A DNA stretch of 64,000 nt, taken from assembly GCA_963669175.1 (NCBI GenBank), contig OY769902.1, positions 4,288,001 to 4,352,000 on the forward strand, read 5' to 3'. Both the position numbers and the translations under genes were made by a program. Shown piece after piece: positions 8,096-53,793 of this stretch; within the stretch, counting starts at the first letter, position 1; each line of letters opens with the position of its first letter. The notes under the pieces are model-generated. The model worked only from the letters and a program-made list of their open reading frames with translations. It had not been told where the DNA came from and searched no databases. Source of the stretch: a bacterium. GTDB lineage: Bacteria; Electryoneota; Electryoneia; Electryoneales; Electryoneaceae.

Positions 8096-8178
8096 ATATT
8101 GCTACAGATCAAGAGCATACAGAAGAATGGTATACATACATAATGTAAAAAAACCTTACATTATAAGTTTTTCTTAAA

Positions 8179-8353
8179 TTACAACTTTACAACTTTACAA
8201 CTTTACAACTTTACAACTTTACAACTTTACAACTTTACAACTTTACAACTTTACAACTTTACAACTTTACAACTTTACAACTTTACAACTTTACAACTTT
8301 ACAACTTTACAACTTTACAACTTTACAACTTTACAACTTTACAACTTTACAAC
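8179..8353. repeat. Perfect 8-bp tandem repeat (TTACAACT), about 22 copies
   Basis: Directly visible; ends 3 nt before the hypF ATG. Confidence 0.97.
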
Positions 8354-8356
8354 AGC

Positions 8357-10654
8357 ATGAGTAAGCGAGAAGCACGAAAAATCCATATATCCGGCGCTGT
8401 GCAAGGTGTCGGATTTCGTCCTTTTGTCTGGCGCATCGCCCATGAGGAAGGTGTCACGGGCGAAGTCGCCAATACGGCGGAGGGTGTGATTATCTCTGTC
8501 GAGGGAGATTCTGCTCAGGTCGATCGTTTCCTTCAACGTCTGCAACAGGAACCGCCCGCCCTTGCACGGATTGACAGCATCCGTGTAGAACCGGCTTCTC
8601 TGTCCAATGTCACGTCCTTTACCATTGTGGAGTCTTCCGGCGGCGTAGCGAACACAGTAATCCTGCCTGACATCGGGTTATGCGATGACTGCTTGATGGA
8701 ACTTTTCGATCCCTCGGAACGGCGTTTTCGTTACCCGTTTATCACCTGCACCAACTGCGGTCCACGCTACAGTATCATCGAAAAACTGCCGTATGATCGT
8801 CCCAATACAACCATGAAGGATTTTCCGCTTTGTCCCGATTGCGCACGTGAATATGCTGATCCATCGGACCGTCGTTTTCACGCTCAGCCACTGGCCTGCC
8901 CGGTCTGCGGCCCTCAACTGGCATTGTTGGATGGCGATGGAAATGTTCTGGCCGAGAAAGATGACGCCCTGATTCAAACCATCCTTGCCATTCAGGACGG
9001 GAAGATCGTTGCGGTTAAAGGCATTGGCGGTTTTCAACTGATGGTCAACGCGCTGAATGAAGACGCGGTTAAACGGTTGCGTTTACGGAAACAGCGTGAA
9101 GAAAAACCCTTCGCGGTGATGATGAGTAATGGCGGGCAGGTGTGCGACTATGTTGAAGCCGATGCGTCCGCTTTCGCGGTCATGTCCGGTCCGGAAGCGC
9201 CGATCCTGCTGTGTCGTAAACGTACTGATCCGTTAGCCAGGCAACTTCCGGATGCGATTGCGCCGGGCAATCCGAACCTGGGCGTCATGTTGCCCTATTC
9301 CCCACTTCACTATTTGCTGATGGGCAGCCTGGGGATTCCGGTTGTCGCCACCAGTGGCAACCTGTCTGACGAACCGATTTGTATCGATGAACAGGAAGCG
9401 CTGGAACGATTGCACGGGATCGCAGACCTGTTCCTGGTACATAATCGCCCGATTGCTCGTCATGTGGATGATTCGGTTGTACGGTTGGTGAATGATGAGG
9501 TGCAGGTGCTACGGCGTGCGCGAGGTTATGCGCCAATGCCGGTACGTTTTGAACAACCTCTCCCGCACATCCTTGCAGTCGGCGCACACTTCAAGAATAC
9601 AGTCGCCCTCTCCGTTGGTCAGAATGTGTTTCTGAGTCAGCATATCGGCGACCTGGAAACAGTGGAAGCTCACCGGGCGTTTCGTGAAAGCGTGGAATCG
9701 CTGCGTGGGCTGTATGACCATCCTCTCGATGCGGTAGCCTGCGACCTGCACCCGGATTACCTGTCCACCCAATACGCGAAATCGTTGGATGTGCCGGTAA
9801 TACCGGTGCAACACCATGAAGCTCATGTGGTCAGTTGCCTGGCTGAGAACCACCTGACCGGCCCGGCGGTCGGGATCGCCTGGGATGGATTGGGCCTGGG
9901 GCATGACCGGACTATCTGGGGCGGTGAGTTTTTCCGGGTTGATGAAGATTATAGCTGCGAACGAGTCGCCAGCCTCATCCCCTTCCCGCTCCCCGGCGGC
10001 GATAAAGCCAATCGTGAACCACGACGGGCTGCGTTGGGTGTGCTGTATACCTTGCTAGGTGAGGACATTTTCCAGCGAAATGACCTGGCTTCCGTGACTG
10101 CTTTTGCTGAGCATGAGTTGACGATGCTGAAAGAGATGTTGTCGCGAGGAACCAATTGCCCTGTGACCAGCAGCATGGGGCGTTTGTTTGACGTAGTAGC
10201 TTCACTGCTGGATCTGCGACAAATCCTGACATTCGAAGGGCAGGCCGCCATGCAGTTGGAATACCTCCTTCATGGAGACATACCTGACAGCAAACCCTAT
10301 TCTTTCCAATGGGTAGAATCCGATCAGGATGTGACCAGGTTGGATTGGCGGCCAATGGTGCGGCAGATTCTGGATAACATTGGAAACGGTATTGCGTGCG
10401 AAATTATCAGCAGGCGTTTTCATGATACGCTGGTTGATATCATCCTTGATGCCACGATACGGTTCGGAGAAAAAAGGGTAGCCATGTCCGGCGGCTGTTT
10501 CCAGAATCGTTATCTTCTGGAACAGGCAATCAAACGGATGACAGAAAACGGATTCGAGCCTGTCTGGCACCGTGAGTTACCGCCCAATGATGGGGGTATC
10601 GCCCTGGGGCAGGTGATGATTGCGGGTAGGATTTTGAAGCAAAGAGAAGAATGA
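8357..10654 (+). CDS. hypF: Carbamoyltransferase HypF
   Basis: Acylphosphatase VQGVGFRPF, two Zn fingers, KGIGGF, QHHEAH, PPNDGGIALGQ. Confidence 0.97.
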   Translation: MSKREARKIHISGAVQGVGFRPFVWRIAHEEGVTGEVANTAEGVIISVEGDSAQVDRFLQRLQQEPPALARIDSIRVEPASLSNVTSFTIVESSGGVANTVILPDIGLCDDCLMELFDPSERRFRYPFITCTNCGPRYSIIEKLPYDRPNTTMKDFPLCPDCAREYADPSDRRFHAQPLACPVCGPQLALLDGDGNVLAEKDDALIQTILAIQDGKIVAVKGIGGFQLMVNALNEDAVKRLRLRKQREEKPFAVMMSNGGQVCDYVEADASAFAVMSGPEAPILLCRKRTDPLARQLPDAIAPGNPNLGVMLPYSPLHYLLMGSLGIPVVATSGNLSDEPICIDEQEALERLHGIADLFLVHNRPIARHVDDSVVRLVNDEVQVLRRARGYAPMPVRFEQPLPHILAVGAHFKNTVALSVGQNVFLSQHIGDLETVEAHRAFRESVESLRGLYDHPLDAVACDLHPDYLSTQYAKSLDVPVIPVQHHEAHVVSCLAENHLTGPAVGIAWDGLGLGHDRTIWGGEFFRVDEDYSCERVASLIPFPLPGGDKANREPRRAALGVLYTLLGEDIFQRNDLASVTAFAEHELTMLKEMLSRGTNCPVTSSMGRLFDVVASLLDLRQILTFEGQAAMQLEYLLHGDIPDSKPYSFQWVESDQDVTRLDWRPMVRQILDNIGNGIACEIISRRFHDTLVDIILDATIRFGEKRVAMSGGCFQNRYLLEQAIKRMTENGFEPVWHRELPPNDGGIALGQVMIAGRILKQREE

Positions 10655-15560: not shown

Positions 15561-15705
15561 ATTCCAATTATTAATCCGTCATAGGGTCATGTGCTATATC
15601 AGTGAAATATCCTCTAAATGGTTGGAAGAAAGGATCATGGGAAAAGGGGACTGCCCTTTTACCGGCAATCTCCATGGTGACGGAATAAAATCGAGAACAG
15701 ATATT
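15561..15705 (+). repeat. Dispersed intergenic element, internally deleted copy
   Basis: Shares TCCGTCAT.GGTCATGTGC..ATCAGTGAAA and CCGGCAATCTC...CGGAATAAAATCGAGAACAG with 44186-44505. Confidence 0.8.
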
Positions 15706-15823
15706 CAATACAGAACAATATTCAGAAACTCCAGGCAGGTAGATCGAGTGCAATAGATTGGTATATTGTTCTGCAAGGCTGGAAAATCCGGCTTACGGAC
15801 CCCAACAAAAAAAGGGACCAGGC

Positions 15824-20508: not shown

Positions 20509-21106
20509 ATGTCATCCCCGGCTCATTCCCATGTCATCCCCGTCCCCATTCAATGTCATCCCCGGCTTGAACGGGGATCTCGAGGATACTGTAAAGAATG
20601 CTGAATTCGAACTGCGTTGTTTCACGCAAAGGAAGAAAACAAGAAAAGCATGGAAGAATGCCCTTGAGTACTGTTTGCCACTTCATGCTCTATCCCGATG
20701 CCTCAGGGGACTGGACGAGATAAAGGACACAGTGAGAGTTTTTCTGCTGAAATGCGAGATGTATAGCAGTTCTCGATTTTATTCCGTTATAATGGAGATT
20801 GCCGGGAAAAGGGGACGGGATCCTTTTCCTCCCGCTTATACAGACTATTCCTGAAGTATTCCTGGAATAGGAAACTGTCCCCTTTTCCGTGTAATTCCTG
20901 CCTGCTCTCAAGAAAAAGGGTACAGCCACCTTTCCCGGTCCATGCTCACACAGGGAAGGCTTTGCCACAGGAAAAAGAAACTGTCCCCTTCTTCTATGTC
21001 CTTTATTCCAACTATAGTGGGTTGCACAAATAACATTGCATAGGACAGCAATATTTCGAGATCCCCGGTTGATCCCCGACTACAACATTCGGGGAGGGGA
21101 TGACAT
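20509..21106. repeat. GTCATCCCC/GGGGATGAC REP-like inverted pair enclosing a second element
   Basis: ATGTCATCCCC x3 (20509, 20531, 20553) and GGGGATCTCGA at 20573; mirrored by TCGAGATCCCC at 21056 and GGGGATGACAT at 21096. Confidence 0.75.
20762..21017 (-). repeat. Dispersed intergenic element, reverse-oriented copy
   Basis: Reverse complement aligns with 44240-44505, for example CCTGCCTGCTCTCAAGAAAAAGGGTACAGCCACCTTTCCCGGTCC. Confidence 0.9.
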
Positions 21107-44185: not shown

Positions 44186-44505
44186 ATTCCCATTATTATT
44201 CCGTCATGTGGTCATGTGCCAGATCAGTGAAAGGTCAACCATATGGTTGGAATAAAGGATAAGGATATGGAAAAAGGGGACAGTTTCCTTTCCCTGGGGC
44301 AAAGCCTTCCCGCTGTGAGCAAGGACCGGGAAAGGTGGCTGTACCCTTTTTCTTGAGAGCAGGCAGGACGTACACGGAAAAGGGTACAGTTTCCTTTTCC
44401 ACAAGTTCGGCGAGAGTGTTTCATATGCGCGCGAGGAAAAGGATCCCGTCCCCTTTTCCCGGCAATCTCTATTATGTCGGAATAAAATCGAGAACAGCAA
44501 TACCT
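44186..44505 (+). repeat. Dispersed intergenic element, longest copy, built of AAAAGGG(G/T)ACAG-type palindromic modules
   Basis: Homologous to 15561-15705 and 20762-21017; related single modules near 44047 and 44590. Confidence 0.9.
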
Positions 44506-44806: not shown

Positions 44807-47089
44807 TCATTTAAGCAATACAATTCGTCGCAAAGGAGCTGCTTTGCCATCATGTGTAGCACGTAAATAGTACATCCCCGACGCCAGCTCATGTGCATTG
44901 ACAGTCACAAGATGAATCCCTGCGTTTTGGACACCAAGCGTATGTTTCTGCACCACCTGCCCCAGGATATTCACCAGCTCCAGCTCAACGGTTCCTGCTT
45001 CAGGAAGATGAACCTCAACAACGCTCGTGGCATTAAACGGGTTGGGATAAGCTTCACTGATAAAGAATTCTTGCGGAAGTGACAACTTGTCCTCATCCAC
45101 ATCAAGGTTCCAGATGAGTTCCAGCGGCCCCGCCGGTTCCGATTCGCCGTTATCATACTGGGCTGTAACCCAATAGTGATAAGTGCCGTACTGAACAATG
45201 CGGTCGATATACTCATGGTCCACTGGCGATGCAATCAGGGTGCTGTCACGATAAACATGATAGGACAGAAAGTCATCCAGTTCGTCATCCGATCCGGCTT
45301 GCTGTATCATGCTTCCGCCACGATCCAGACGTACCTGCGCACGGATGAAATAGGTCTGCGGCCAGGCGCTCCAGGTACTCCCATTGAAGTCAAAACAACG
45401 CTCATTGTTATCATCATCATAGCCCAGCCGAACAGTCGTATTCAGCGAACCGAAGGCAACGATAAAATCACTCCCGAACACAAGGTTCTGGTCAATTGAG
45501 AAGTCATGCCAGCCATTGGAGGATACAGTTTCTGTACTGGAATATAACAGGGAATCACCGGGCATACCCGTAATCTCGTTCCAGTTGAAAACCTTGACCT
45601 GGAACGGTTGATCGGAACCGGTTACCCGCAGGTAATAACTGACCCTGAGTAAACGGCACGAATCGGACGGGCTCATCCGTTGTCCCAGCGTGTACCCCTG
45701 GAAATCGTAATACCCACTCGGCCAGCCATCATCATAGATAAGGTTTTCCGTAGGCCCTTCGATATCCGGCGGTTCCCAGTCGAGGAAGACATAACCGTAT
45801 TGTTCATCCAGCTCGGCGGTCAAGTCAACAGGTGACGGTAACGCTGCCGGTCCTGCAAGGCTGAACTCGGCATAAACAGTCGTATCCAGATCGGGAATTT
45901 CAAGCGGTGTGTTCAGAGCCGGAATCGTATCATTCCAGGCGGGATAGATGATCTGGGCTTCGTTGATCTGGCCTGAATGCCCATTTCCGGGATGATTGTC
46001 ACGTACCCCGGCAAACATCGGGTTCAGACGATAACGATCCAGCATCCAGGCCGCGTCGGTAAGATCAAGTACGATTTCAACCGGTGGTACGGCAACACGA
46101 GCGTAAGCGTACGCATCCATCCATGAGAAGAACGTCCGGCTCCACCGTCTGTCTTCAACCGTTCCCAGCCCGACGTCCAGCGAGATGCCATACTTGTCGG
46201 TATGGGAGATATCCATAGTGGCCAAAAAACTGGGTTCATAATCTGTCAAATCATCTGCATGGAACGCAAATCCGGATGAGGTAGTCAAACTTGTCATGGC
46301 ATCATAGGTAACCCAGCAGTAGCCGGAAAGTCCCCAAACGGTGCCGACACTGTTCACCACCTTGAAAGCGCCGAGCCCGTCATCATTGACATGATTATCC
46401 ATAAAACCCACAACCGGCAGGACAATGGTCCCTTCCGGGTTGCCGTAAATTTCAGACAGGCAGTAGTTTCCACCATATTCATCAATGTTGGTGAAGTTGC
46501 CGTAAACATTCAACTCCACCAGTGCGATATGACCGTCAAGAAGCAGGGATTTGAGCTGTTCCACACCTGTAGTGTCCAGATCGATGTAATACCACGGCCC
46601 GGTACGGTATTCCATGGCGTTGATCCAGTCGGGACGCGTGGGCCAGGTGGTGTAGTCCTCCGCATCGTAGGGCATATCGACCATCGTGGCGCACCCATTA
46701 AAACGCAGCAACTCCATGACATCAGCAAGATCACTGTCCTGATTGATGCCGTGGTTGGTCAGGTTAAACACAAATGCGGGACTGAAACGGTGAGAAGAGG
46801 TTGACACATCCCAGTGTCGCTCTTCCCATTCCTGGTAGGTTTTGTAATAATATGCCACAGACCATGCCGTGGCGGAATTCTGGCTGCCACGATTGCCGAC
46901 TGCGGGAAGGTGTGCGGAGTTGTCCGCCGCCTCATCCAGTTCATACGATGTATGGACAGGATAATCGCTCGGCAGTAGCCACTCCGGCAGCTCTTGCCCA
47001 TATACCCGGACATTTGCCGAAAAGGAAAACGCGACCGTTATCAATACCAACATCACTATTTTCAAGATGTTGCTTCTATCCATCCCCAT
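44807..47089 (-). CDS. Secreted papain-like (C1A) fold protein with degenerate active site, split Fn3 and T9SS-like CTD
   Basis: LPAVGNRGSQNSATAW, FSPAFVFN, GAFKVVNSVGTVWGLSGYCWVTY; YPNPFN CTD. Confidence 0.88.
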   Translation of the reverse strand: MGMDRSNILKIVMLVLITVAFSFSANVRVYGQELPEWLLPSDYPVHTSYELDEAADNSAHLPAVGNRGSQNSATAWSVAYYYKTYQEWEERHWDVSTSSHRFSPAFVFNLTNHGINQDSDLADVMELLRFNGCATMVDMPYDAEDYTTWPTRPDWINAMEYRTGPWYYIDLDTTGVEQLKSLLLDGHIALVELNVYGNFTNIDEYGGNYCLSEIYGNPEGTIVLPVVGFMDNHVNDDGLGAFKVVNSVGTVWGLSGYCWVTYDAMTSLTTSSGFAFHADDLTDYEPSFLATMDISHTDKYGISLDVGLGTVEDRRWSRTFFSWMDAYAYARVAVPPVEIVLDLTDAAWMLDRYRLNPMFAGVRDNHPGNGHSGQINEAQIIYPAWNDTIPALNTPLEIPDLDTTVYAEFSLAGPAALPSPVDLTAELDEQYGYVFLDWEPPDIEGPTENLIYDDGWPSGYYDFQGYTLGQRMSPSDSCRLLRVSYYLRVTGSDQPFQVKVFNWNEITGMPGDSLLYSSTETVSSNGWHDFSIDQNLVFGSDFIVAFGSLNTTVRLGYDDDNNERCFDFNGSTWSAWPQTYFIRAQVRLDRGGSMIQQAGSDDELDDFLSYHVYRDSTLIASPVDHEYIDRIVQYGTYHYWVTAQYDNGESEPAGPLELIWNLDVDEDKLSLPQEFFISEAYPNPFNATSVVEVHLPEAGTVELELVNILGQVVQKHTLGVQNAGIHLVTVNAHELASGMYYLRATHDGKAAPLRRIVLLK

Positions 47090-47495: not shown

Positions 47496-48068
47496 CTAGA
47501 AATAGTACAAAACCCTTACCTGCAGGTTGAAGAACGCCTCATCAATGGAATCACCGGCGTCATCAGCAGCGTATTCAATATCGTAGCGGAACAACGGCAC
47601 AATCGCCCAGTGATTCCCAGCTATCTCCAGCCCCAGCCCAAAGCGGGCTCTTCTGTAATCACGGTCAAAATCGACTGGACCATCAATTGATTCATTCATC
47701 CAATAATAGGAGGCTTCCAGGATCGGACTTATGGGGAATTCTGGAGCGGCCATGTTCCAGGTGAGTTTCACGCCATGACCGTCACCAAGGGCTTTCTTCT
47801 TGTTCCGCTTGCTCCAGAACCAGTCGTATTCATAGGAAACACCAATGTAATCTGTGATATAGTAGCCAAATGAAGGAATCAATTCAACATGGTACAACTT
47901 TCTATCCTCATCATCCGGATTGCTGGCAACACTCTGCGAGGAAGGAGATTGCAGGCTGTTTCCCAAACCGATATAGAATCTACCTTTTCGAGGTTCTTTC
48001 TTGAATTCCTGTGCTGAAACAGCAGAGACTAATAGAAAAAACAAAGCCACCCATGTGAAGTGTTTCAC
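47496..48068 (-). CDS. Small outer-membrane beta-barrel protein
   Basis: Signal peptide, alternating aromatic strands, C-terminal YYF. Confidence 0.75.
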   Translation of the reverse strand: MKHFTWVALFFLLVSAVSAQEFKKEPRKGRFYIGLGNSLQSPSSQSVASNPDDEDRKLYHVELIPSFGYYITDYIGVSYEYDWFWSKRNKKKALGDGHGVKLTWNMAAPEFPISPILEASYYWMNESIDGPVDFDRDYRRARFGLGLEIAGNHWAIVPLFRYDIEYAADDAGDSIDEAFFNLQVRVLYYF

Positions 48069-48313
48069 TTTCCCCCCAAAATGTTTCCTGATCGAACAAC
48101 GGTGTGACCGAATGCTGATCTTGTCTTCGAATGAAGGGTAATCACTTTCGGCAGGTAATCACAACAGCGATTGGCCCCTGTCAGGATGGTTCTTCATAAT
48201 ACTCACTTTCAATGCCTTTGTTTCCTCTTTGTATAATCAGCCTCCCCTGAATATTGAGCAACACACATAGTTATTCTGCTATGTAAACAGTCAAGGGTGT
48301 AAAGAGCCTTTGT

Positions 48314-48454
48314 ATCGTCCCATGTGCCGTTCTGCTATTCGTGCTCGTGGCACAAGTTTTTTGTTCGCACGGAACAGCGGCGCCCTAAACTCGAATCGTT
48401 GTCAAGCAACAGAATAACTACCAGGGTCGCGTGTTCCCAATGGCATCGGACGAT
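48314..48454 (-). ncRNA. Predicted bridge (seek) RNA of the IS110 element
   Basis: Closing stem ATCGTCCGATG/CATGGGACGAT; two internal loops with guides matching the flank (TAGTTATTCT) and the donor end (ATAGCAG). Confidence 0.75.
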
Positions 48455-48498
48455 TCAATCACAATCTATGCTTTACCTACCTGCCAGCAGTGCTGGGG

Positions 48499-49560
48499 TT
48501 ATACGCAGGCAGGATTGTAGTCTTGTTCTTTGACCAGCATGGCCCACAGTATCACGGCTAGTTTTCGTGCCATGGCGACGATCGCCACTTTCCGTGTTTT
48601 CCCGGCATGGATCGCATCGTATTTCTTCTTTGCATACGGATCTTTTTGCACCCAACGCCACGCAGCTTCGACCAATAGTTTTCGTAGATGGGACGGTCCC
48701 CAGTGGGTAATGTGTCCCATATGGCGTGTGTTGGCGCTTGACCATTCACACGGCGTCAAGCCAAGATGTGCGCCGACTTGCTTACCGGATGCGAAGCGTT
48801 CGGGACGATACATCTCGGTCACGAAGGCGTTCACGGTCAACTCGCCCACGCCTTTCACCTGGCACAGGCGCTGGGTACGGTCCCGATACGTTGCGGACGC
48901 ATTCATCGCCTTGATCGCTTTGGTGATCACCTTGAGTTGCTGTTCAATGGCCTCCAGCTCATCGAGAGCAACATCAATGGCTATCCGTGTCGCGGCCAGA
49001 CAATCACACGTTCGCAACCAGCGCCGGTATTCCTTTGTCCAATAGCGTTGCGGCGGAAACGGTGACTGTAAACCGTGAAACAATAGCAGACTCTTGATTC
49101 GGTTTTTGACCCGAACGCGATCATTCATCACCTGGTCACGGGTTCGAGACAACTGACGATCCGCCTCTTCCTGTTCTGTAGGGACATGTACCCAGGTACG
49201 GGGCGGTGTCCAGAACATGTGGGCCAAGGTCAGGGCATCCAGATGATCGGTCTTCTGCTGCTTCGCTTGCGCCCCTTTGGGAACTTGGCTGGGCGGCGCG
49301 ATCTGGCAGTCAACACCTTGGCCGATCAGGTAACGACAGAGGCCAAAGCCGGTGAGGCCCGCTTCATAACACGCCCACATGCGGCAGTTGGGAAAACGGG
49401 CAAAGAAGCCTTCCCAGGCGGCTGAGTCATGCTTGATCCGATTCTCAAAGAGCACTTCACCAGTCTGGGTGTCGAGCACAACGGCGAAAGAAGTCTGCGA
49501 ATCAACATCCAGACCTATAGACAATGAACGGTCCGCTGCAATAACTTGGTTCTTCGACAT
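48499..49560 (-). CDS. IS110-family DEDD recombinase/transposase
   Basis: GLDV, YEAG, KTDHLDA, GVG, GLTP..WSS and VAMARKL. Confidence 0.95.
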   Translation of the reverse strand: MSKNQVIAADRSLSIGLDVDSQTSFAVVLDTQTGEVLFENRIKHDSAAWEGFFARFPNCRMWACYEAGLTGFGLCRYLIGQGVDCQIAPPSQVPKGAQAKQQKTDHLDALTLAHMFWTPPRTWVHVPTEQEEADRQLSRTRDQVMNDRVRVKNRIKSLLLFHGLQSPFPPQRYWTKEYRRWLRTCDCLAATRIAIDVALDELEAIEQQLKVITKAIKAMNASATYRDRTQRLCQVKGVGELTVNAFVTEMYRPERFASGKQVGAHLGLTPCEWSSANTRHMGHITHWGPSHLRKLLVEAAWRWVQKDPYAKKKYDAIHAGKTRKVAIVAMARKLAVILWAMLVKEQDYNPACV

Positions 49561-49855
49561 GGCGCTTCTCCTTGTGTTGGAAAAATGGAATACTGCTAAG
49601 ATAGCAGTTCCAACACGACTTGATGCGCCTGTCGTTTAACATAGGAACTCTGATAACATTTCTTCCGCCGACTGTGTTATCAACGTAAAACCTTAAATGC
49701 TTCAGTGTTTATTTGTCAACTGACATACACATCCCTGCCGCTTAACACTCAATACCAGGCGCACAGAAGTACAATACCCCGGGCCCTGACATACCCGGGG
49801 TGTTGAATAACTTGCCCGAAAAGACTACGTGAACAAGCTACGTGTAGCTCCCTTC

Positions 49856-52800
49856 CTAGCGAACAAGCGTGATCTTACGAACAGTGTTCATCTTACCGGG
49901 AACATGTGCCCTGATAAAGTAAATCCCACTGGAAAGGTTCGTGGCATCAAATGTGAAAGCATGGTATCCCTGTGCGAAACGGCCCTGCGCCAGGACAGAA
50001 ACCTGCTCGCCAAGGATGTTGAAGACACGGACATTCAGCTCGGCTGCATCGGGCAGGCCGATTACAGCGGTCATGGTCGGGTTGAACGGATTCGGGTAAG
50101 CACGTGCAATGCTGTACTCGGTCGGAACTGTTGAGAACAGATTCTCGTTGACGCCGACACCATCCCAATTAACAGAAGCTGTGTCCGAATTGGCCGAATT
50201 ACCTTCTACGAACGATGCAACAACATAATAGGAATAGGCGCCAACTGCTTCACCGGTCAGATCATCAATGAAACCAATCGTATCCACTTCAGCCAATGCA
50301 TCACCATTACGGAAGATGATAAATTCATCGAATGTGTACGTTTCATCATCACCGGTAAACGTCCATGAAAGCTCGACAGAAGGACTACCATCTTCACGCG
50401 TAGCGGACATGCTTGCCGGCGCTTCCAGGATAGGCGCGTTGAAATCTTCAGCCATGGAAGGGATAATCTGAACCACATTGTTGTACAGGCCGATCGGACC
50501 GCGTATAACAATCCAGTCATCTTCAGCAAAATCGCTCAGGTCGAGATCGGCGGCTTCGTTGATGTAGACCTGAACAGCTCCGGAACCGTCATCAATGGAC
50601 AGGGCATACGATCCTGTTTCAGGATCGGATTCGAGCTGCCCCAGGATTTCCGCCCAGGCGCCCTCAAGTGCTTGCTGTCCGGCAATCGTAGCGGTTGTGC
50701 CGGTGTAAGGTGTCGGCAGATCATTGCCCGTACTGAGAACTTCGTACTCGAAATACACGAGTTCAGTTATACCGTTATACTCAACCACTTGCCCGGTAAC
50801 CTGGATTTGATCTCCACGGTTCAGGTTGTCAGCGGGGTCAATAGCTTCGGAATCATACAACATCACTCCGTAACCGCTTTCATCCTGGATGTAACAATCA
50901 AAGCGATCAGTGTGGATGGAATTGGTTGGCAAGGTCACAGTACCTGTTGTGGTAACCCATGTGCCCGCTTCAACCGAGGTCTGAATGTTTTCAATCGAGT
51001 AGGTAACGATAAGGGCCAGGGTAATGTCGATGACCTCGAAATCACCGGCTTCCACTTCGATGCCAGCCTGAATATAAGGTGCATAATCTTCAATCACTGC
51101 AACCAGGTCATAGGTCGCAGGCGCCAACTCGTCAAATTCGTAGTAGCCGAGTCTGTCCGTGTAGACAGTCTGGAGAAGGCCTTCATCAGGTTGAATGGCA
51201 ACCAGCACGTTTTCCATCGGGTTGTCGTCGGAATCAATGATCGTTCCGGAAATGTTGCCAGTTGTATAGGCAGAGAGTGTGATATCGATGGTTTCAATAT
51301 CACCGGCGCTCAAGTCGATGCCATTCTGCGTATAGGGTATATAGCCAGCAAAATCAGTGCTCAGGCTATAAATCTCAGGAACAATATCAGCGATTTCGTA
51401 ATAACCGTGCGCATCTGACGTTGTTGTTCGTGTGTCACCGGTATTGGGTGTCATCGTGACAGTTACACCTCCCAGCGCGTTTCCGTCATCATCGGTTATA
51501 ACACCAGATACATTGGCAGTGGTTGACCAGATCATGGTGATGTTGATAACCTCAGCCTGCCCGGTTACCAGTTCAATGCCATCCTGTACATACGGATCGT
51601 AACCATCATATTCCGCACGCAGACTGTATGTGCCTGGTGTCAGGTCCAACAATTCGTAATGTCCGGATCCGTCTGAAGTGGTCACGAATGGAAATCCCGT
51701 TTCCGGTGTCAGCGAGACATTGATCTGCATCAAGGGGTGGGTTGCTTCATCCTGGATCGTACCGGAAAGGGAAGCATTCGTACCAGTCGTGAGGTTAAAA
51801 TCGACAACGATAAAATCACCGGCTTCCACTTCAATCCCTTCCTGTGTACCAGTGACATATCCATCGTATTCAGCGCTCACGGAATAAGTACCCGGCGAAA
51901 GCGAACCGAACCGGTAATGTCCCTCTTCATCCGTGAAGACCATCAACGGCAATCCGCCCTGGGGAGTCAGCGAAACAGTTGCGTTTTCAATGGCATCGCC
52001 ATCCGCATCCATGACCGTACCCGAGATGCTGCCGGTTGTCCAGTCATAGTATATGCGTCCGGAAACTTCGCCATCGAGAATCGGCATATTATCATCAACA
52101 CCATAGTATACCTGAAGCCCGATCTCGCCGTCCTGATCTTCATAACCTATGGCTACGATAGCATCTTCCGGGTGCGCTGAAATTGTATTATAGTTGACAA
52201 CAATTTCTCTGGTATCGAAATCCATAACACACTGAAAGGTGTTTTCCGTATCATCCGTATTGTAGTAAACAACTTCGGACCACGTAATAACCAACTTTCC
52301 ATCCACAACTTCAGCATAAACCGCGCCATCAGCACCTTCATCAGCGGGGTTTAGGTCGGCGCCAAAGATGGACAGCAAGCTGTTCGGTTCGAATTCATTC
52401 GGTGTGGGATTGGAATAGGGATATCCAACCGCATCGCTGTTTGTAAAGGAAATCCTGCCGTTGGAATTGACATACATGTCTCTGTAAGCAGCATCGTACC
52501 AGGTGAAATCACCCAGGCCATAATCCGCAAAAGTCAGCAACACACTTGCGTCATCACCCAGTTCCAGGTCCGTAGCATTTTCTGAAACCGCCTGCCACGA
52601 ATACTCAATGACTTCGAAATAGTGCATGCCTTCTTCAGGCCACGGATCAAGTTCAACATTGACTGTATTAAAGCCATCAGACAATTCTATTGCCTCAGCA
52701 TAAGCGTAGTAGCCGGATGCGCTGGGAATTTCAACCGAGTTCTGTCCGATCACACAGCCTTCAATGCTGTAACCGCCGCGGTCATCCGTTGTTGCACTAT

Positions 52801-53599
52801 GCGAGCCGATAGTTACGACAACTCCTTCAAGCGCAGCGCCTGTTTCAGAGTCTGTTACGGTTCCAGAAAGATTGGCTGTACCGGAAGGCGCCTCATCTTC
52901 TTCTGAGTGAACAAGAACATTATCAACTACCCAGAAGTAAGCATAGTTGGCGTCATAATAACGGAACCTGATCTGGACTTCACTGTTGCCGGCAGCTTCT
53001 TCCGAAATGTCCAGGTTGTTGATGTTGTCTTCACTGTCTTCAAGATAAAACTCAAGGACGTTGACCCATGTATCGCCACCATCCACAGTGACATCAACAT
53101 CGCAAACCTCTTCATCGTAGTACCAGAAGAAGCTGGAAAAGGAAAGATAAACTGTTTCCAAATCCGAACAATCAAACACAGGAGATATCAACTGTTCATC
53201 CAGGTCGACTTGCCCCATATTATCCGAATCAACGATGGCAAACTCGCTATCAAATCCTTCAATAATTCTGGTTCCGAAGTTTCGCCGCCACGTATAGCCA
53301 TCATCAGAACCATCGACAACGATCCAATGTTCGGGGATTCCATTTTCAAAGGTTTCGTACAGGATAGTTTCATCCAGTTCGCCCCGACGCGGAGTCCAAC
53401 CACTACGATCTCCAGCGGCTTCAACGCGATCCAGGATTTCCGGGTGTTCTTTCAATAGCAGGTTTTGCTGTGGGGTTAAAACGTGGTTCTGCCATACCGC
53501 AAGCTGCAGCTCTTTCAATTCTTCACGCGATGCTGCAAAAACGCTTGTCACCAGTAGTAGGCAAATGCCGAGTGAAAGTAAAGCTTTTCGATGAAACAT
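49856..53599 (-). CDS. Large secreted adhesin-like protein: adhesin jelly-roll, NIDO-like, 5 carboxypeptidase-regulatory-like repeats, OB folds, Fn3, T9SS-like CTD
   Basis: SD GGAGG before ATG 53599; signal peptide; repeated xSGTxxD..G.Y....PGTY; YIQDESG; AYPNPFNP CTD. Confidence 0.88.
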   Translation of the reverse strand: MFHRKALLSLGICLLLVTSVFAASREELKELQLAVWQNHVLTPQQNLLLKEHPEILDRVEAAGDRSGWTPRRGELDETILYETFENGIPEHWIVVDGSDDGYTWRRNFGTRIIEGFDSEFAIVDSDNMGQVDLDEQLISPVFDCSDLETVYLSFSSFFWYYDEEVCDVDVTVDGGDTWVNVLEFYLEDSEDNINNLDISEEAAGNSEVQIRFRYYDANYAYFWVVDNVLVHSEEDEAPSGTANLSGTVTDSETGAALEGVVVTIGSHSATTDDRGGYSIEGCVIGQNSVEIPSASGYYAYAEAIELSDGFNTVNVELDPWPEEGMHYFEVIEYSWQAVSENATDLELGDDASVLLTFADYGLGDFTWYDAAYRDMYVNSNGRISFTNSDAVGYPYSNPTPNEFEPNSLLSIFGADLNPADEGADGAVYAEVVDGKLVITWSEVVYYNTDDTENTFQCVMDFDTREIVVNYNTISAHPEDAIVAIGYEDQDGEIGLQVYYGVDDNMPILDGEVSGRIYYDWTTGSISGTVMDADGDAIENATVSLTPQGGLPLMVFTDEEGHYRFGSLSPGTYSVSAEYDGYVTGTQEGIEVEAGDFIVVDFNLTTGTNASLSGTIQDEATHPLMQINVSLTPETGFPFVTTSDGSGHYELLDLTPGTYSLRAEYDGYDPYVQDGIELVTGQAEVINITMIWSTTANVSGVITDDDGNALGGVTVTMTPNTGDTRTTTSDAHGYYEIADIVPEIYSLSTDFAGYIPYTQNGIDLSAGDIETIDITLSAYTTGNISGTIIDSDDNPMENVLVAIQPDEGLLQTVYTDRLGYYEFDELAPATYDLVAVIEDYAPYIQAGIEVEAGDFEVIDITLALIVTYSIENIQTSVEAGTWVTTTGTVTLPTNSIHTDRFDCYIQDESGYGVMLYDSEAIDPADNLNRGDQIQVTGQVVEYNGITELVYFEYEVLSTGNDLPTPYTGTTATIAGQQALEGAWAEILGQLESDPETGSYALSIDDGSGAVQVYINEAADLDLSDFAEDDWIVIRGPIGLYNNVVQIIPSMAEDFNAPILEAPASMSATREDGSPSVELSWTFTGDDETYTFDEFIIFRNGDALAEVDTIGFIDDLTGEAVGAYSYYVVASFVEGNSANSDTASVNWDGVGVNENLFSTVPTEYSIARAYPNPFNPTMTAVIGLPDAAELNVRVFNILGEQVSVLAQGRFAQGYHAFTFDATNLSSGIYFIRAHVPGKMNTVRKITLVR

Positions 53600-53793
53600 G
53601 TGCTGCTCCTCCGTCAATGATCAAATCTCAACGCACAAGTGGATCGTTCATGCGTTATCGTACAAATAACTTCCTGTACCAACTTCCCGCATGAAAAGCT
53701 CGTTACAAATTTCCTCCCTGTTTATTGTTTGCCTGGATCATCGAATGCCATCGCGGCGCCATGCCAGATGGACTTCAAAACAAACCAGTTGAG

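Follow-up and report, generated by a model that had tools for sequence, protein, structure and literature searches.

The window, by which we mean the whole 64,000-nt stretch analysed here (positions 4,288,001 to 4,352,000 of the forward strand of contig OY769902.1, assembly GCA_963669175.1, from a bacterium of the Electryoneaceae), carries an IS110-family insertion element on its minus strand, in which a transposase gene is followed by a non-coding region that runs to the right end (RE). The question raised by this locus is whether that region holds a structured RNA whose loops name both the insertion site and the ends of the element. We consider it highly probable that the element is an autonomous member of the IS110 family with IS1111-type organisation, in which such an RNA guides target choice and the recognition of its own ends. 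The element adds an unusually clear case to the known class of RNA-guided transposons and is not a new kind of system. A preliminary description, made from the letters alone, had proposed an IS110 element with a readable bridge RNA, and the sequence features named in it were all located where it had placed them.

The element, its core and its guides

When the stretch 48267-49650 was compared with the rest of the single-contig genome (5,447,365 bases), 12 copies were found in all, with 99-100% identity and 15 variable columns among the 1373 aligned. The ends of the element were set by aligning the 12 copies together with their flanks. In transposase orientation every copy (12/12) consists of left flank, AG, TTCCTATGTTAAAC ... 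CCCTTGACTGTTTACATAGC, (A/G)G and right flank; the copies thus have the same ends and related targets, as had been anticipated. Five unoccupied sites in the genome read ...GGAATAAAATCG-AG-AACAGCTAT (exact empty sites TCG-AG-AAYARCTAT, with ...AAATCG before AG). Because these empty sites match the left junctions through AG and the right junctions from AG onwards, AG (CT on the plus strand) is the shared core, in agreement with the CT core that the preliminary description had read from the ends of the guides. The body of the element (48278-49647, 1370 bp) and one 2-bp core make a unit of 1372 bp. The span given earlier, 48276-49649, had the ends right and counted both core copies.

The proposed family was confirmed by profile matches of the 353-aa transposase to PF01548 (DEDD_Tnp_IS110; 64.5 bits, E = 1.2e-17), PF02371 (Transposase_20; 70.7 bits, E = 1.4e-19) and the NCBIfam model NF033542, 'IS110 family RNA-guided transposase' (245.7 bits, cut-off 140). 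Both IS110 domains, the conserved acidic residues and serines, and site-specific insertion at a shared core and without terminal inverted repeats are all present. Residues D18, D20, E66, D105, D108, S274 and S275 are invariant in 35/35 aligned relatives, the window protein included, and members of this set are presumably catalytic. The transposase frame is open in 12/12 copies; together with the few variable columns, the conserved acidic residues and the serine pair, this bears out the earlier claim that the element is intact, and judging by its sequence it has also been active recently. In two DNA sequencing runs the element assembled as a 1373-nt contig with a depth of 287-398 vs 20-30 in the flanks, an excess that fits about a dozen copies.

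The RNA domain downstream of the gene contains two internal loops, one for the target and one for the donor, each with a 5' and a 3' guide separated by a small hairpin (Table 1). The 5' target guide UAGUUAUUCU is the reverse complement of AG+AATAACTA, i.e. of the core and the RE-side flank, and in the window copy it forms 10/10 pairs. Read on the plus strand, the RE-side flank TAGTTATT is identical to the first 8 nt of this guide. The identity of a loop sequence with flank plus core had been pointed out in the preliminary description; the 10-mer concerned, TAGTTATTCT, indeed occurs twice in the window, at 48268-48277 (plus strand) and 48411-48420 (minus strand), against an expected 0.01, and two matches were obtained in 0/100 shuffles. 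The remaining 11 copies have AAYARCTA, or a sequence close to it, as their RE-side flank, and over the 12 copies the guide forms 7-10 Watson-Crick pairs and 0-1 wobble pairs (8-10/10 in total). Position 5 of the guide is mismatched at 8/12 insertion sites, and the first core base is able to wobble.

The 3' target guide GAUUCGAG has the sense of the flank at the left end (LE) followed by the core. It matches 5/8 positions in the window copy, as weakly as had been described, 6/8 in ten of the other eleven copies and 5/8 in the eleventh; among the six LE-flank bases before the core, three match in the window copy and one more could wobble. Common to the 12 sites is the sequence (A/T/C)(T/C/A)(C/A)G-AG-AA(Y)(A/T)(R/T)CTA. 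In the donor loop, the 3' guide AUAGCAG agrees with the RE end ATAGC plus AG at 7/7 positions, and this half of the donor match claimed earlier was upheld. All four guides agree on the core, since the two 5' guides terminate in CU and the two 3' guides in AG. The RNA region varies at one site among the 12 copies besides 48277: position 48355 in the 5' donor guide (variant column 1295), the base opposite the first core position, is C and not U in L005, L007 and L011.

The landing sites of the copies were also compared. Seven of the 12 copies occupy one and the same position within the tail of an intergenic repeat that is rich in hairpins and ~290 nt long, three lie at the end of another small repeat, and two, including the window copy, in unique DNA. 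The ~290-nt repeat is a mosaic that contains several hairpins of the form GGAAAAGG...CCTTTTCC as well as a tail that is conserved (...GGAATAAAATCG-AG-AACAGC(T/A)AT), and the family has ~55 genomic members with the tail motif and up to ~100 partial matches. The insertion point lies in a single-stranded-looking part of the tail, ~30 nt past the last hairpin. Occupancy was tested with the 44 repeat sites that have a recognisable tail (6 occupied, 38 empty); outside the test were 11 family members without such a tail and one occupied member missed by the seed pattern. All six occupied sites (6/6) were found within the 15 best 5'-guide matches of the 44 (Mann-Whitney p = 0.0007).

Relatives, RNA fold and alternative explanations

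The target guides co-vary with the targets across orthologues. Loci for relatives, seeded by the 35-protein alignment, were taken from genome bins (80 of the 84 found) and metagenomes (80 of the 343 found), and 20 elements of the near clade were examined. Both ends were located in 18 of them, L137 being without an LE and L115 without an RE. The near-clade elements have an LE of the form core+TT(C/T)CTAT.. (AGATTCTAT.. in L119) and an RE of the form TTGAC..ATAG(C/T)+core. Their downstream regions have the motifs GACCCCG, GUAU and GAAUAGCAG in common, and the intervening sequences differ.

For the RE side, the longest word common to the RNA region and the reverse complement of the flank was determined in 17 elements. 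The mean word length was 6.9 nt with the elements' own flanks vs 5.1 nt with those of others, a value reached in 0/20,000 permutations, and wrong-sense controls gave 3-6 nt. For the LE side, the guide was set by its position before a conserved AG-U in 18 elements; its identity was 2.78/4 with the own flank vs 1.0 with others, which again 0/20,000 permutations reached. The 3' donor guide matches the RE end at 7/7 positions in 13/18 elements, and where the end changes the guide changes with it (AUAGUAG/ATAGTAG in L120, AUAGCUG/ATAGCTG in L113 and L116). When the distant elements L126, L130 and L136 were inspected by eye, their guides were seen to match their own RE flanks. This natural retargeting among relatives suggests that the guides may be reprogrammable.

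In the RNA domain, 48455-48448 and 48321-48314 form a closing stem around two arms, one for the target (stem, loop and hairpin) and one for the donor (short stem, loop and hairpin). When folds were constrained by holding the guides single-stranded, the full two-arm topology was obtained with 14/19 native sequences vs 24/760 shuffles, and the window RNA had z = -3.06. A covariance model (R1), built from the window copy and its fold only, gave full-length matches downstream of 11 further transposase genes, the most distant of which (L124) has 34% protein identity (41.5 bits, E = 4e-8). In the 12-sequence R1 alignment 88.1% of cells are paired vs 58.0% in shuffles (0/500), and a slid-partner control gave 35-48%. 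Compensatory changes on both sides are found in 37/43 stem pairs, and all six helices are 74-95% paired. Helix 4, the target-guide hairpin, is 95% paired with 5/5 pairs changed on both sides; helix 6, the donor-guide hairpin, shows 90.3% pairing and has 3 pairs in which both sides have changed. The conserved secondary structure that characterises a bridge RNA or seekRNA was thus found both in the constrained folds and in the R1 alignment. Covariance folding, which had been proposed in the preliminary description as a check, gave a conserved and compensated fold, and the guide-RNA reading is backed by the guide-flank co-variation as well.

Under this reading, and by analogy with IS621 and ISEc11, the RNA would be produced and bound by the transposase, a circle would be formed, and strand exchange would follow a similar chemistry. 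The transposase-RNA complex would bring the joined ends of an excised copy to a target of the form (A/T)TCG-AG-AAYARCTA. There, the 5' strand of the target loop would pair with one DNA strand (core and RE-side flank) and the 3' strand with the other (LE-side flank and core). In the donor arm, the 3' strand AUAGCAG would pair with the RE end and core, and the 5' strand AACU, weakly, with the core and the start of the LE. With the RNA bridging the circular or joined donor and the target, strands would be exchanged at the AG (CT) core. The conserved tail of the hairpin-rich intergenic repeat would be the preferred target in this genome.

A number of results weigh against the guide-RNA reading, and they are given here together with the explanations that they might favour instead. 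Folded without constraints, the 223-nt non-coding region does not have a significant minimum free energy (z = -1.05; 32/200 shuffles fold equally well). RNAalifold gave 0 pairs on a plain MAFFT alignment because the hairpins are out of register in that alignment. The R1 alignment is fitted to the model structure and leans toward it, a bias that the slid controls share in part. Rfam returned no family in 47500-50500 (E up to 1) or in the whole window (gathering scores). The only RNA run with related words covers 49037-49377 with 4-5 differences per 150 nt; these words represent the transposase gene of a relative, outside the RNA domain, and that single run gave no evidence for transcription of the domain. 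A promoter scan of the element returned no sigma-70-like site for the RNA, and the promoter type of the host may differ. The word test over the whole region was null for the LE side (p = 0.79) because the 3' target guide is short, and a signal was obtained only with the guide position fixed. Several relatives also have common targets, so that their independence is overstated; the same sharing raises the off-diagonal values, which opposes the signal.

The unconstrained fold and the negative results of the Rfam scans and the RNA run would fit an explanation in which the downstream region is a 3' untranslated or terminator region and the matches are due to chance or history, the likeness to the flank being the remnant of an old target. 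We regard this as the most improbable of the alternatives. In the relatives, the guide keeps its structural position, and its sequence differs in such a way that it fits the flank of the respective element; moreover, most stem pairs show compensatory change and the occupied sites of the target repeat family are among those with the better guide match.

The second half of the donor match proposed in the preliminary description did not hold up equally well. The 5' donor guide AAAACU matches the start of the LE at 4/6 positions, in which AACU pairs with AG+TT and the next two bases are mismatched. Among the 18 relatives, this guide scores 4.33 of 6 with the own end (range 3-6/6), which is barely above the 3.98 with other ends (permutation p = 0.007). 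AUAGCAG and the RE end are nearly invariant and offer few informative changes, and the sub-terminal repeats are conserved in position and change in sequence among relatives. The available part of PMC11187229 indicates that end recognition may differ in IS1111-type elements. These points would suit an RNA that seeks the target only, with the transposase reading its own ends via the sub-terminal repeats and the donor-loop matches being conserved sequence. Such an arrangement seems unlikely to us, since the 3' donor guide does follow the changes of the RE end in L120, L113 and L116. In addition, the LE+3 base is tracked by the 5' donor guide (A in 5/5 T elements and G in 8/13 C elements; Fisher p = 0.029), and the donor arm repeats the loop-hairpin-loop layout of the target arm, with a compensated hairpin.

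Two further points concern activity. The C-terminal motif of the window transposase, GLTPCEWSSA, ends in SSA, whereas most relatives and the published motif have SSG; the last position is A in 10/35 relatives and G in 24/35. The glycine of the SG motif is required in the related Piv invertase, as described in the accessible text of PMC11187229. In the contigs of four sequencing runs, neither a circle junction nor the joint of a (polymorphic) empty site was seen. A family that expanded recently and is now inactive, e.g. through the SSA variant, with the RNA as a relic, could account for both points. We consider this highly improbable: all 12 copies encode the same SSA protein, are 99-100% identical and lie at distinct sites, so the expansion occurred with the SSA sequence, and alanine at this place is shared by the relatives just mentioned. 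An autonomous element guided by its own RNA at target and ends is the reading that we prefer.

Junction features and further landing sites

The features of the element and its surroundings are collected in Table 1. The LE arm of the sub-terminal inverted repeat pairs with the RE sequence GTTTACATAG at 10 bases and with a one-base offset (one extra T in the LE), and the same offset is found in relatives with different repeat sequences. Outside the repeats are terminal extensions of AGTTC and CAG (5 and 3 bp, with the core counted at both ends). Non-coding DNA measures 221 nt downstream of the gene (48278-48498) vs 87 nt upstream (49561-49647), and the relatives examined are alike in this respect. 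The predicted circle junction reads ...CATAGC-AG-TTCCTATG... As the preliminary description had also read from the sequence, TTGACT and TATGTT would be 17 nt apart in the joined ends, with 11 nt of RE, the AG core and TTCC between them, and would face the transposase gene.

Table 1 Positions of the element's features, and of unoccupied repeat copies, in the window (strand "." where none applies)
Feature	Position	Strand	Basis or remark
RE-side target flank TAGTTATT	48268..48275	+	minus strand AATAACTA, after AG core
Core CT (AG in transposase orientation), RE junction	48276..48277	.	empty sites vs occupied junctions
Sub-terminal inverted repeat, RE arm CTATGTAAAC (+ strand)	48279..48288	.	matches LE arm
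Outward-facing -35-like hexamer TTGACT in RE	48294-48289	-	TTGAC kept in 19 relatives with located RE end
Predicted bridge/seek RNA domain, 149 nt, downstream of transposase gene	48458-48310	-	constrained fold and covariance model R1
5' target guide UAGUUAUUCU	48420-48411	-	complementary to AG + RE-side flank
Target-guide hairpin GUUGCUUGACAAC (GUUG-CUUGA-CAAC)	48410-48398	-	fold; separates 5' and 3' target guides
3' target guide GAUUCGAG	48397-48390	-	same sense as LE-side flank + AG core
5' donor guide region AAAAAACUU	48362-48354	-	AACU complementary to AG+TT of LE
Donor-guide hairpin GUGCCACGAGCAC (GUGC-CACGA-GCAC)	48353-48341	-	fold; separates 5' and 3' donor guides
3' donor guide AAUAGCAG, (A)AUAGCAG	48339-48332	-	same sense as RE end ATAGC + AG
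Transposase gene, 353 aa, DEDD (RuvC-like) N-terminal and IS110 C-terminal domain	48499..49560	-	
Inverted exact copy of predicted circle junction ATAGCAGTTCC (ATAGC-AG-TTCC), 11/11	49601..49611	+	inside left end
Sub-terminal inverted repeat, LE arm CTATGTTAAAC	49634..49644	-	overlaps -10-like TATGTT
-10-like TATGTT in LE	49643-49638	-	sequence reading
Core CT (AG in transposase orientation), LE junction	49648..49649	.	AG in 12/12 copies
LE-side target flank CTGATAAC	49650..49657	+	minus strand GTTATCAG
Unoccupied repeat copies in window	44261-44503, 20761-21003, 15654-15707		

Inside the left end, the predicted circle junction recurs as an inverted copy, which is placed after the predicted junction promoter and before the transposase start codon. 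This copy is part of a 7-bp terminator-like hairpin (49592-49608), and on the minus strand a run rich in T comes after the hairpin. Among the 17 relatives checked, six (L107-L111 and L119) have a related motif at the same distance from the LE tip, and the motif partly follows the relatives' own junction sequence (e.g. L119 and L108). It is possible, although rather unlikely, that this copy acts as a built-in operator or riboregulator. As an operator, it would be bound by the transposase-RNA complex via the donor loop, by which the transposase would repress its own gene. As a riboregulator, in transcripts across the joined ends the motif would pair with the junction and switch the hairpin 49608-49592. 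A left-end feedback device of this kind would be undescribed for IS110/IS1111 elements in the available parts of the literature cited here.

The first core base at the RE junction (48277, minus-strand reading; column 1373) is A in eight of the copies and G in the other four. The copies with G (L004, L005, L010 and L012) all have TTCG, the best left-flank match. Among the relatives, 5/18 elements (L109, L110, L114, L119 and L122) have an RE-junction core that disagrees with the donor guide, and L109 and L110 have GG at the RE junction only. The LE junctions of the relatives have AG throughout, save in L113 and L116, in which LE core, RE core and donor guide are all TG. The last U of the 5' target guide would be able to wobble with G at the first core position. 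This pattern fits strand-specific inheritance, in which a target-derived base would be kept after exchange of one strand only. Single-strand excision has been reported for IS621 in the accessible part of a recent preprint (10.64898/2026.08.31.748434).

Unoccupied members of the second target repeat were looked for because of the GG-core copies, and none were found in the genome. An Rfam scan of the ~290-nt repeat returned no family; only sub-threshold microRNA look-alikes were obtained and these were taken as chance. In the left flank of L004 (genome ~4,232,950-4,233,094), a tandem array of the 18-nt unit ATCGAATCAGCAATAGMY directly adjoins the insertion, and two further insertions adjoin single ATCGAATCAGCAATAGMY units. 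At L136:1318-1400, the element adjoins a tRNA T-arm-like sequence (GGTTCAAATCC), and the 5' guide of L136 has a 9-nt match to this flank. Two other repeats were noted in the window. At 8131-8393, an 8-nt unit (TTACAACT) is present in ~23 tandem copies. At 51018-51859, within the 1253-aa ORF 49856-53617 (minus strand), a 68-nt segment recurs four times with a spacing of 258 nt, probably as a result of repeated domains in the protein; the C-terminal sequence of this ORF is similar to that of the 760-aa ORF 44807-47089.

Traces of the same terminus were observed in a same-genus genome (G001; loci L187-L194), in which at least 14 contig ends break ~50 nt inside the same RE terminus. The flank reads ATAGTAATT-CT in 5/7 contig ends inspected, from which a 5' target guide with one base different from the guide in the window would be expected. 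The assembly is without the element interior, and one locus (L188) has a 48-nt RE remnant within a contig. A search for an empty orthologous site in this genome found none.

Comparison with known systems

RNA-guided IS110/IS1111 recombinases are under development as programmable DNA-insertion tools, and mechanistic work has been done mostly on IS621 and a few enterobacterial elements. The present element provides a natural data set that consists of 12 insertion sites and ~40 unoccupied look-alikes in one genome together with ~18 relatives with different guides and matching flanks, and that reveals guide positions which tolerate mismatch or wobble. It is also a candidate IS1111-type system with a very short 5' donor guide, and its insertions identify a family of hairpin-rich repeats in the host as a landing pad for mobile DNA.

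A protein search with the transposase returned 788 proteins at E <= 1e-30. The nearest non-self match is 85% identical, followed by a clade at 43-64%; the labels among these matches are at most 'transposase' or 'IS110 family transposase', and the close relatives come from metagenome bins. Among the named plasmid-borne relatives, protein identity is 30.5% for ISEc45, 28.6% for IS5708 (aligned over residues 14-348), 26.0% for IS4321 and 25.1% for IS5075 (both aligned over residues 100-349). The solved structures (IS621, with 8WT6 and others, and ISCro4) align over the C-terminal domain only, at E ~7e-9, and the alignment with IS621 is limited to residues 193-343 (E = 7.5e-9).

When compared with the IS1111-group seekRNA elements ISEc11, ISPa11 and ISKpn4, as far as these are described in the available text of PMC11187229, the transposase is similar in size (330-350 aa vs 353 aa here) and has the GL-P----S motif in its C-terminal domain. 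The longer non-coding region downstream of the gene, the sub-terminal inverted repeats and a promoter from the joined ends are also IS1111-type characters in the same text, and as in a seekRNA the part of the RNA that is complementary to the top strand is located 5' of the part that matches the bottom strand, with an overlap at the insertion point. Unlike in the IS1111 group of that source, the repeats here are 10-11 bp with a one-base offset (vs near-perfect 11-13 bp), 5 and 3 bp extend beyond them at the termini (vs 7 and 3 bp) and the motif ends in SSA (vs SG or TG). Identity to the named plasmid-borne relatives is only 25-31%.

In the accessible part of PMC11208160, bridge RNAs are predicted in the RE of IS1111-group elements, and the rule given for IS621 assigns 8-9 nt of bottom-strand pairing to the 5' side of a loop and 4-7 nt of top-strand pairing to the 3' side. 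The RNA described here resembles that of IS621 in the same source in having two internal loops whose 5' (8-10 nt) and 3' (4-8 nt) strands pair with opposite DNA strands, a shared CT core and a length of ~150 nt. On the plus strand of the window, the target reads TAGTTATT-CT-(CGAA..); the 5' loop strand repeats the sequence of the left target and the core, and the 3' loop strand is the complement of the core and the right target. Read in this way, the geometry of left and right target guides (LTG/RTG) and donor guides (LDG/RDG) is that of IS621 as given in PMC11208160. Compared with IS621 in that text, the RNA here lies in the right end, downstream of the gene, and on the strand opposite to the left target (LT)-core-right target (RT) frame; the 5' donor guide is very short and the protein is distant. 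The RNA order here is the reversed order of the IS1111-type seekRNAs, as these are presented in the available part of PMC11187229.

In its choice of sites the element resembles ISPpu9 and ISPpu10, for which the accessible parts of PMC12288879 and bioRxiv 10.64898/2026.03.19.712850 likewise describe multi-copy, site-specific insertion into one position of an intergenic repeat. Unlike the repetitive extragenic palindromes described there as targets of ISPpu9 and ISPpu10, the repeat used here is a mosaic of ~290 nt, and insertion takes place in its tail beyond the hairpins.

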